From assembly GCF_003334305.1 (NCBI RefSeq), contig NZ_QOWS01000010.1: a stretch of 64,000 bases of DNA. The stretch is one strand, 5' to 3'. The notes beneath the pieces are model-generated. The model was given only the letters and a program-made list of their open reading frames with translations, made no database searches and had not been told where the DNA came from. Made by a program: the position numbers and the translations under genes. This stretch comes from Escherichia coli. Its GTDB lineage: Bacteria; Pseudomonadota; Gammaproteobacteria; Enterobacterales; Enterobacteriaceae. This document shows positions 9,908 to 10,366 of the stretch, piece after piece (the first letter of the stretch is position 1; every line of letters begins with the position of its first letter).

Positions 9908-10139
9908 TCTGTAAATATTATTTAGCTGTAGTAATCACTCGCCGTAATTATTACGGCTAAATAAACATCAGTATCGCTTAATAATATTTGTTCTTTTGTG
10001 CGGCTTAGCGTTTGGAAATTATTGACGCTATTTATGAATTCTATTTTTCTTACACGATTCAGCTAATTAGTTTTTATTTTCTCACTACCCAGTTGTCACC
10101 TTAATGATAATTATTTGTTAAATAATTGTTTTATTTTGT

Positions 10140-10155
10140 ATTGGTTATACCAATT
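10140..10155 (+). promoter_or_regulatory. PdhR-box-like palindrome in the cyoA control region
   Basis: ATTGGTTATACCAATT matches the ATTGGT-N3-ACCAAT PdhR operator pattern ~210 bp upstream of cyoA. Confidence 0.5.
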
Positions 10156-10366
10156 GCCCGTCCAAACTCCTTCTGCACTCCCCTTTCGTTATAACGCCCT
10201 TTTGCAACAGCTTCTTAAAATCAACTTGATATGTTTTGCAACATATGTGACCTGACAGCCAAATCCAAGTAACAGGAATTTAATCATGTTTACAGTAATG
10301 TAACCTTCCCGTAAAATGCCCACACACTTTAAACGCCACCAGATCCCGTGGAATTGAGGTCGTTAA

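Follow-up and report, generated by a model that had tools for sequence, protein, structure and literature searches.

Three palindromes in the ampG–cyoA spacer of Escherichia coli: a PdhR operator, part of a conserved ampG 3′-UTR hairpin and, most likely, a lineage-specific symmetry

On balance, the three palindromes (P1, P2 and P3) in the 459-bp spacer between ampG and cyoA of Escherichia coli appear to be three different and unrelated things. P2, the middle one, is a known operator. P1, the one nearest to ampG, is part of a conserved hairpin of uncharacterised function in the 3′ untranslated region (3′ UTR) of ampG. P3, the one nearest to cyoA, is most probably a symmetry confined to one lineage and adjacent to an ancient upstream element. 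All features of the spacer are of known kinds. In the original prediction, all three were taken to be operators of one control region. This is not supported for P1, which belongs to the 3′ end of ampG and is part of an RNA-type hairpin with covariation, nor is it for P3, its dyad being unconserved and its right arm alone being kept outside Escherichia. The same prediction was to fall if all three elements mapped to annotated ArcA, Fnr, CRP, PdhR or Fur sites; among the published sites that were compared, P2 alone does so. cyoABCDE encodes the principal terminal oxidase of aerobic growth, and its promoter is a classic case of control by many inputs, for which the outcome is a cleaned-up map: one unassigned palindrome (P1) falls outside the promoter, in a conserved RNA hairpin that belongs to the gene next door, and the other (P3) probably lies beside an ancient, phase-locked element whose factor is not firmly assigned. 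The understanding of cyo regulation is unchanged by these results.

The window, i.e., the whole stretch of 64,000 nucleotides that was analysed, is E. coli DNA. According to the RefSeq annotation of matching loci, the gene order is yajG, ampG, cyoA, cyoB, and zero features are annotated within the spacer (9908-10366). ampG occupies 8432-9907 on the + strand, with its stop codon at 9905-9907, and cyoA starts at 10367. The spacer itself is 100% identical to that of strain M8 and many other genomes, and is present once per genome in 5,425 of 5,426 complete E. coli genomes. It differs from that of K-12 MG1655 at about 20 positions, with P1, P2 and P3 all identical in the two strains. The palindromes are exact in the sequence and lie where they had been reported: P1 is GCCGTAAT-T-ATTACGGC (9941-9957, 8-bp arms), P2 is ATTGGT-TAT-ACCAAT(T) (10140-10154/5, 6-bp arms) and P3 is ATATGTT-TTGC-AACATAT (10229-10246, 7-bp arms). 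Published K-12 coordinates in the old numbering were converted to the window by subtraction (window = 461201 - coordinate); the conversion was anchored by two published ArcA site sequences, which are found verbatim at the predicted places.

That the cyo promoter integrates several regulators, as had been stated, agrees with the published map, in which ArcA has sites at 10093-10135 and 10286-10317 and a third ChIP peak near 10201. These correspond to the three ArcA ChIP-seq regions upstream of cyo described by Park 2013. Site cyoA1 (10286-10317), which has three repeats and is annotated at -38 to -7, overlaps the core promoter; its sequence together with this annotation fixes the transcription start site (TSS) at 10324. 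The core promoter (10286-10324, + strand) has the -35 element TTTACA at 10289-10294 and the -10 element TAAAAT at 10312-10317, and in a promoter consensus scan TTTACA-17-TAAAAT (10289-10317) matches at 10/12 positions. A sigma-70 ChIP peak, strong aerobically and weak anaerobically, has been reported at about 10330. Throughout 76 Enterobacterales spacers the -35 element is invariant (76/76), TAGAAT takes the place of TAAAAT in five, and the spacing and the leader (39-56 nt, mostly 42-45 nt) are essentially invariant. CpxR-like and HprR-like consensus matches also fall on the core promoter.

Site cyoA3 (10093-10135, + strand; -231 to -189) consists of four direct repeats, and the sequence given for it in the supplementary tables of Park 2013 (TTGTCAC...TTTTATT) matches the one here apart from strain differences. 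A position weight matrix (PWM) was built from 113 published ArcA boxes, with the cyoA ones left out and with a training minimum of 9.7 bits. This matrix scores cyoA3 at 18.9 and 18.0 bits, and with best scores of 18.9 and 13.3 bits it recovers both of the cyoA sites that had been published. The third region, cyoA2, has its peak centre near 10201 (about 10191-10211) and is without an ArcA box above 10 bits (Park 2013). Cra and CRP are further reported regulators of cyo. Within cyoA3 there are a Fur-box-like stretch (12/18 of the Fur consensus at 10100-10118) and an additional palindrome with 8-bp arms, AATTATTTGTTAAATAATT (10109-10127), which was absent from the earlier description of the spacer.

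P2 (10140-10155; -184 to -169) is the operator of PdhR, the pyruvate-sensing GntR-family repressor, and is already established as such for cyoABCDE of K-12. It had been described as PdhR-box-like; it is in fact the published cyoA box. The PdhR box consensus is a palindrome of 15-17 bp, (A)ATTGGT-N3-ACCAAT(T), and ATTGGTTATACCAAT at 10140-10154 matches the core ATTGGT-N3-ACCAAT at 12/12 positions. Binding of PdhR to the K-12 cyoA box is published, as a genomic SELEX peak and as a listed box: Table 1 of Anzai 2020 gives, from genomic SELEX, the cyoA box AATTGGTataACCAATg (13/14), which maps to the centre of P2 at 10147. P2 has the same palindrome as the K-12 PdhR operators (pdhR-aceEF-lpd, ndh, cyoABCDE) and the same genomic place as the cyoA box. 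Its core is identical to that of K-12 and nothing essential differs, the flank being ...ACCAATa here and ...ACCAATg in K-12 (published strand). The operator is centred at -177, four bases downstream of the four-repeat ArcA site cyoA3. It is present at the equivalent position in most Enterobacteriaceae, with at least 10/12 matches in 31 of the 76 spacers, and in the same set is absent from Klebsiella and from most Erwiniaceae and Yersiniaceae. Some E. coli, including an O157:H7 strain, have a G to A change at 10144, inside the box.

P3 (10229-10246; -95 to -78) is most likely not an independent operator bound by a dedicated factor. Within the species it is highly uniform: of 5425 E. coli genomes, 2817 share an identical 30-mer spanning P3 and 2595 differ from it by a single mismatch, which in K-12 and three other aligned strains is a T/C polymorphism at 10226, outside P3. 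P3 is unchanged in all ten aligned strains. Another 13 genomes are more divergent in the 30-mer, and in the one that was inspected the changes are outside P3. The flanks of P3 in E. coli are nearly as invariant as P3. The 30-mer is present once per E. coli genome, i.e., it is not a dispersed repeat, and the 64-kb window contains no other site resembling P3. A single palindrome with arms of at least 7 and a spacer of at most 4 arises in 21% of dinucleotide-preserving shuffles of the 459-bp spacer (P(≥1) = 0.21), so P3 by itself is not significant.

Beyond Escherichia, the two arms of P3 are conserved to different degrees. Among 34 Enterobacteriaceae the left arm has a mean identity to E. coli of about 36% and the right arm one of about 69%, and the left arm differs even in Salmonella and Citrobacter. 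The right arm lies within a conserved block, GCAACATNTGTGAC, around which other lineages have symmetries of their own: ACATAT-N8-ATATGT in Citrobacter, and TGTCAC-N14-GTGACA in Klebsiella, Erwiniaceae and Yersiniaceae, each with a different axis. As the symmetries and their axes differ from lineage to lineage, there is no conserved dyad at P3. The block that includes the right arm comprises the 5′ flank of an ancient TGTGA-N6 element together with its first half-site, and the left arm is of recent origin.

As far as the sequence allows a judgement, the functional unit at P3 is most likely this adjacent TGTGA element, which is the leading candidate to explain what the block does. The element, TGTGA-N6-NNNCA, is a CRP-type candidate located at 10246-10261 on the + strand, where it shares one base with P3 and is centred at -70.5. 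When all 76 Enterobacterales spacers are anchored on the promoter, TGTGA-N6-NNNCA falls at exactly -81.5 in 56 of them. Near 10271, 11 bp have been deleted in the Escherichia/Salmonella/Citrobacter clade, where the TGTGA element is consequently found at -70.5; the PdhR box is at -177 there, compared with -188 in genera without the deletion. Both are thereby one helical turn closer to the promoter, with the phase preserved.

A CRP site is taken here as TGTGA-N6-TCACA in which position 4 is G and position 13 is C, centred as in class I or class II promoters. The E. coli element, TGTGACCTGACAGCCA, matches 7/10 of the CRP core, with G4 present and C13 absent; the match increases to 9/10 (TGTGA-N6-TAACA) in Serratia, Rahnella and Photorhabdus. 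Class I CRP sites lie near -61.5, -71.5 and -82.5, and the cyoA candidate resembles them in having a perfect first half-site (TGTGA) and a centre at -70.5 or -81.5, with the helical phase preserved by the 11-bp indel. Unlike them, it has a poor second half-site in E. coli (AGCCA), in which the key C is absent in every genus, and the GCAACAT upstream of TGTGA shows stronger conservation than is usual for the flank of a CRP site. The element is most plausibly a candidate weak, class-I-type CRP site. Of the possible factors CRP is the strongest candidate, as RegulonDB lists cyoA among its targets. The assignment is nevertheless tentative, because C13 is absent in every genus and genomic SELEX with CRP failed to recover cyoA. 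A literature search for the candidate CRP site strings gave no match.

Several other factors were tried on P3, and FNR was rejected. No match of at least 7/10 to the FNR consensus (TTGAT-N4-ATCAA) overlaps P1, P2 or P3. Myers 2013 reported no FNR ChIP-seq peak at cyoA, a motifless peak in ChIP-chip only at about 10068, and cyoABCDE as ArcA-regulated without an FNR peak; the regulation is attributed to ArcA. No match of at least 12/18 to the Fur box (19 bp, GATAATGATAATCATTATC-like) overlaps P2 or P3, and a 12/18 match at 9957-9975 overlaps P1 by no more than its first base. Consensus scans for Fur, HprR/CusR and CpxR gave nothing on P3, and nothing on P1 beyond this one-base Fur overlap. Likenesses of P3 to OmpR, CytR, GntR-type and LysR-type motifs were weighed as possible leads; none of them seems to match in spacing. 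A literature search for the exact sequences of P1 and P3 yielded unrelated eukaryotic matches only.

Perhaps P3 is instead a true operator that the Escherichia lineage acquired and to which a dimeric factor binds, either an unassigned one or a known one in an atypical manner; such an operator might explain the cyoA2 peak. We regard this as unlikely. Its attraction lies in the perfect, 7-bp and, in E. coli, near-invariant arms, and in cyoA2, the ArcA peak without a box, whose centre is about 36 bp from P3. In addition, a direct repeat of TTTTGCAACA at 10200 and 10234 (34 bp apart) has its first copy under the cyoA2 centre. The ArcA multi-direct-repeat sites of Park 2013 flank the region, with the third ChIP peak between them and near P3, and the arms of P3 resemble single ArcA half-elements, scoring 5.2 and 6.9 bits as such. 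However, these half-elements are inverted, unlike those of ArcA sites, which are direct repeats with 11-bp spacing. An ArcA box was defined as at least two TGTTA-like direct repeats with 11-bp spacing, above about 10 bits; the best 18-mer overlapping P3 scores 1.9 bits against the published-box minimum of 9.7, and an ArcA box was rejected there. The divergent left arm in Salmonella and Citrobacter, the lack of a conserved dyad axis in related lineages, the chance expectation of about 0.2 for a lone palindrome of this size and the lack of a literature match for its sequence also argue against an operator.

P1 (9941-9957) is a perfect palindrome in E. coli only, and forms the loop edge and the 3′ arm of a larger stem-loop in the ampG 3′ UTR. 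This stem-loop (9918-9964, + strand) starts 10 nt after the ampG stop codon and has a 21-bp stem and a 5-nt loop. The larger inverted repeat around P1, which the earlier description had also missed, was identified by a repeat finder as arms of 21 nt at 9918-9938 and 9944-9964, 86% complementary, separated by the 5-nt loop. As RNA of the + strand, the region folds with -22.6 kcal/mol (z = -4.5), the - strand giving a weaker fold; the short hairpin formed by P1 itself has -7.6 kcal/mol compared with -19.8 for the long one.

The region was aligned from 20 Enterobacteriaceae genera and species. The RNAalifold consensus for these 20 sequences is a stem of 14 pairs, of which seven have changes on both sides. 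Pairing is found in 91.1% of cells, and 17 cells have double changes; as a control, sliding the partner by 1-3 columns lowers pairing to 23-56%. The covariation score was reached by none of 500 shuffles, although, the aligned sequences being related, shuffle controls overstate the significance of the stem. Examples of compensation are GCCG/CGGC to GACG/CGTC in Klebsiella, and a wholly different outer stem, CGAGUCC/GGACUCG, in Pseudocitrobacter. A G·U pair occupies one position of the stem in 19 of the 20 sequences and another position in five. Pairing on the + strand (91.1%) exceeds that on the - strand (79.3%), and the + strand gives the better fold in 14 of the 20 sequences. The ampG stem thus shows the features of a conserved structured RNA, i.e., compensatory substitutions and strand-specific G·U pairs. 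The bias in pairing towards the + strand, the conserved G·U pair and the covariation point to an RNA from the ampG strand, unlike a DNA dyad bound by protein. The loop sequence varies among the 20 Enterobacteriaceae, and the upper stem (UGUAAUCAC...GUAAUUAUA) is conserved in sequence beyond the needs of pairing, which hints at a specific partner for the top of the stem.

Other genera have CGTAATTATAACGGC at the position of P1. E. coli has T at 9952 and, as its partner, A at 9930; in other genera these two bases are A and T, respectively. Going by the alignment, the perfect short palindrome is a by-product of this E. coli-specific compensatory flip (9930/9952), and the conserved unit is the long stem. 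In E. coli 042, an A to G change at 9953 breaks the short palindrome and gives a U·G pair in the long stem; about 60 genomes have comparably divergent versions of P1 (90-95% identity), and the A to G change at 9953 was read in strain 042 only. With a covariance model of the stem-loop, a single copy is recovered from the 64-kb window and a single copy from each of 21 Enterobacteriaceae loci, always after ampG. One of these 21 loci, which was not in the training set, has an ERIC-like insertion between ampG and the hairpin, and has retained the hairpin. The model finds zero copies in Erwiniaceae, Yersiniaceae and Photorhabdus. A 30-mer at P1 is single in each E. coli genome, i.e., it is not a dispersed repeat of the REP/ERIC type.

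With regard to function, we favour, by inference, an element that protects the 3′ end of the message or insulates the downstream promoter. The stem-loop would be transcribed at the end of the yajG-ampG message, would mark or protect the processed 3′ end of ampG mRNA, and may help to keep read-through from ampG out of the cyo promoter. In common with the 3′-terminal mRNA stem-loops by which transcript ends are defined or protected, such as those at ends trimmed after Rho-dependent termination and those of intrinsic terminators, it is stable, on the sense strand and immediately after the stop codon, and it has been kept by compensatory changes with a variable loop; it differs from the typical ones in being unusually long (21 bp) and in the conserved sequence of its upper stem. 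Unlike intrinsic terminators, it has no U tract and is AU-rich rather than GC-rich. An intrinsic terminator was tried and rejected, UAAAUAAACAUC being found directly after the stem in place of a U tract, and a terminator scan of 9800-10450 gave 0 terminator-like sites. Lacking a U tract, the stem would act with Rho or as a block to exonucleases, not as a classical intrinsic terminator. Among the 3′ ends listed in the available part of the Term-seq lists of Adams 2021, none lies between the cyoA-internal and ampG-internal sites, ampG being weakly expressed, and none lies at K-12 451,98x-452,03x. A known Rfam family was also rejected: the lone match is a plant miRNA-precursor model, with 21 bits against a gathering threshold of 119 (E = 0.5).

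Possibly, although we consider it doubtful, the hairpin has a regulatory role as a processing or recognition element, such as an RNase III substrate or a ProQ/Hfq-type site, in place of a passive protective one. Its nearly continuous duplex of about 21 bp corresponds to two helical turns, and its apical part is conserved in sequence. It is confined to one clade of Enterobacteriaceae, in which it was retained despite the ERIC-like insertion next to ampG, and the ends listed in the Term-seq data of Adams 2021, as far as these were available, include no stable 3′ end for it. Against this, the argument is one of anatomy, and an Rfam match is absent. If the hairpin truly acts as an insulator or is processed, the known 3′-UTR elements of enterobacteria would gain one minor member. 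We think it improbable that the hairpin at 9918-9964 is an uncatalogued, clade-specific functional RNA element that, beyond being a passive hairpin, serves as a recognition or processing site and so shields the strongly regulated cyo promoter from transcription arriving from upstream, that P3 is an Escherichia-specific operator behind the cyoA2 peak, or both.

It is very unlikely that P1 and the larger dyad around it are a DNA site for a symmetric protein regulating cyo or ampG, instead of an RNA structure. Conservation of the upper stem beyond pairing (invariant T21 A22 T24 A26 C27 and A35 A36 T37 A39 T40) would suit such a site, as would the lack of an RNA 3′ end among those listed in the accessible Term-seq lists of Adams 2021. 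However, in Klebsiella and Pseudocitrobacter the arms change together, so that pairing is kept and sequence is not; the conserved G·U pair has meaning only in RNA of the + strand; the published ArcA, PdhR and FNR peaks map elsewhere; and a site at P1 would be 360-400 bp upstream of the TSS.

The spacer had also been described as dense in palindromes, and it does contain more of them than shuffled sequence does (P about 0.002-0.01): for distinct palindromes with arms of at least 7 and a spacer of at most 4, 3 are observed compared with a mean of 0.24 in the dinucleotide-preserving shuffles (P(≥3) = 0.0023). There is very little to be said for this density being a by-product of AT-rich, low-complexity intergenic DNA with no biological content: the spacer is indeed AT-rich, and A/T runs make up the palindromes at 9912-9924, 10109-10127 and 10120-10136, but the excess over the shuffles (P = 0.002), the experimentally defined operator at P2 and the covariation in the stem of P1 speak against it, and for P1 and P2 it is already contradicted. 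One more palindrome that was absent from the earlier description, CGTTATAACG, is located at 10187-10196 and is near-invariant across genera.

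The core promoter of cyoA, TTTACA-17-TAAAAT, was compared over window positions 10282-10366 with the corresponding region of orthologous ampG-cyoA loci (L003-L081), and 71 of the 76 Enterobacterales spacers, spanning Escherichia to Serratia, carry it unchanged. In the other five, which belong to the four Photorhabdus loci and to one MAG, the -10 element reads TAGAAT. The length of the cyoA leader in the 76 spacers ranges from 39 to 56 nt, and is mostly 42-45 nt. Such conservation is unusually strict for non-coding DNA.

Upstream of this core, Escherichia, Salmonella and Citrobacter have in common a deletion of 11 bp when compared with other Enterobacteriaceae, located between GTA and ACAG at about position 10271. 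The effect of the deletion is that all upstream elements lie exactly one helical turn nearer to the promoter, including the TGTGA block (10246-10261), the PdhR box (10140-10155) and the four-repeat ArcA site (10093-10135).

The palindrome P3 (10229-10246) adjoins the TGTGA block, and its core is the second copy of a 10-bp direct repeat, TTTTGCAACA, the two copies of which (10200-10209 and 10234-10243) are 34 bp apart. The 64-kb window contains three copies of this sequence versus 0.3 expected, the third being at 4049, and Citrobacter retains both promoter copies. In Klebsiella, Erwiniaceae and Yersiniaceae (L008, L036-L079), the block equivalent to P3 is surrounded by a different symmetry, TGTCAC-N14-GTGACA, at about -110 to -55 from the cyoA transcription start site, and in Erwiniaceae an additional symmetry, TGACACC-N10-GGTGTCA, lies directly downstream of it. 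These symmetries suggest that a symmetric factor may act in these lineages.

Two further palindromes were found in the spacer. The first is a perfect 10-bp palindrome within the element TCGTTATAACG (10186-10196), which is near-invariant between genera; in K-12 and O157, TTGTTATAACG replaces TCGTTATAACG at this position. It is located beneath the ArcA ChIP peak cyoA2, a peak that is without an ArcA box. The element may resemble the “GAD box” of GadE, with which it would share TTTTGTTAT. The second, AATTATTTGTTAAATAATT (10109-10127), with arms of 8 bp, is longer than any other palindrome of the spacer except P1 (9941-9957, in the ampG 3′ UTR); it is situated within the four-repeat ArcA site already published, and a weak match to the Fur box overlaps it.

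A candidate box of the Cra/FruR type is present at 10048-10063, where 12 of 16 positions match GCTGAATCGATTCAGC. Its segment CGATTCAGC (10055-10063), which matches the strong half of such a box, does not vary among 34 Enterobacteriaceae. The cyoABCDE operon is given as Cra-regulated by Kim 2018.

Within E. coli, the 459-bp spacer has only 95-97% identity in most genomes, the variants being concentrated in the unusually polymorphic upstream half (10025-10175); positions 10197-10366 are nearly fixed. Position 10144 of the PdhR box is polymorphic (G/A), in some strains including one of O157:H7. An FNR peak upstream of cyoA at about 10068 (K-12 old coordinate 451133) was reported by ChIP-chip only; it has no FNR motif and is absent from the output of all three ChIP-seq peak callers (Myers 2013).

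Term-seq located a strong RNA 3′ end within cyoA, at 10447-10449 (K-12 451528-451530; Adams 2021), i.e., about 80 nt into the open reading frame and about 125 nt from the transcription start site. Premature termination or processing of the cyoA leader may give rise to this end. Inside ampG, at about 9584 (K-12 452393), is the 3′ end published for the ORF-internal small RNA “ampG int”, which has been detected by northern blot and occurs in Hfq RIL-seq chimeras with CyaR; it is unrelated to the conserved hairpin at 9918-9964. In one Citrobacter species, an insertion of about 270 bp with an ERIC-like core containing CCCCAGGAGCTTACATAAGTAAGTGACTGGGGTGAGCG (L069:1776-2045) separates the ampG stop codon from this hairpin, which persists downstream of the insertion.
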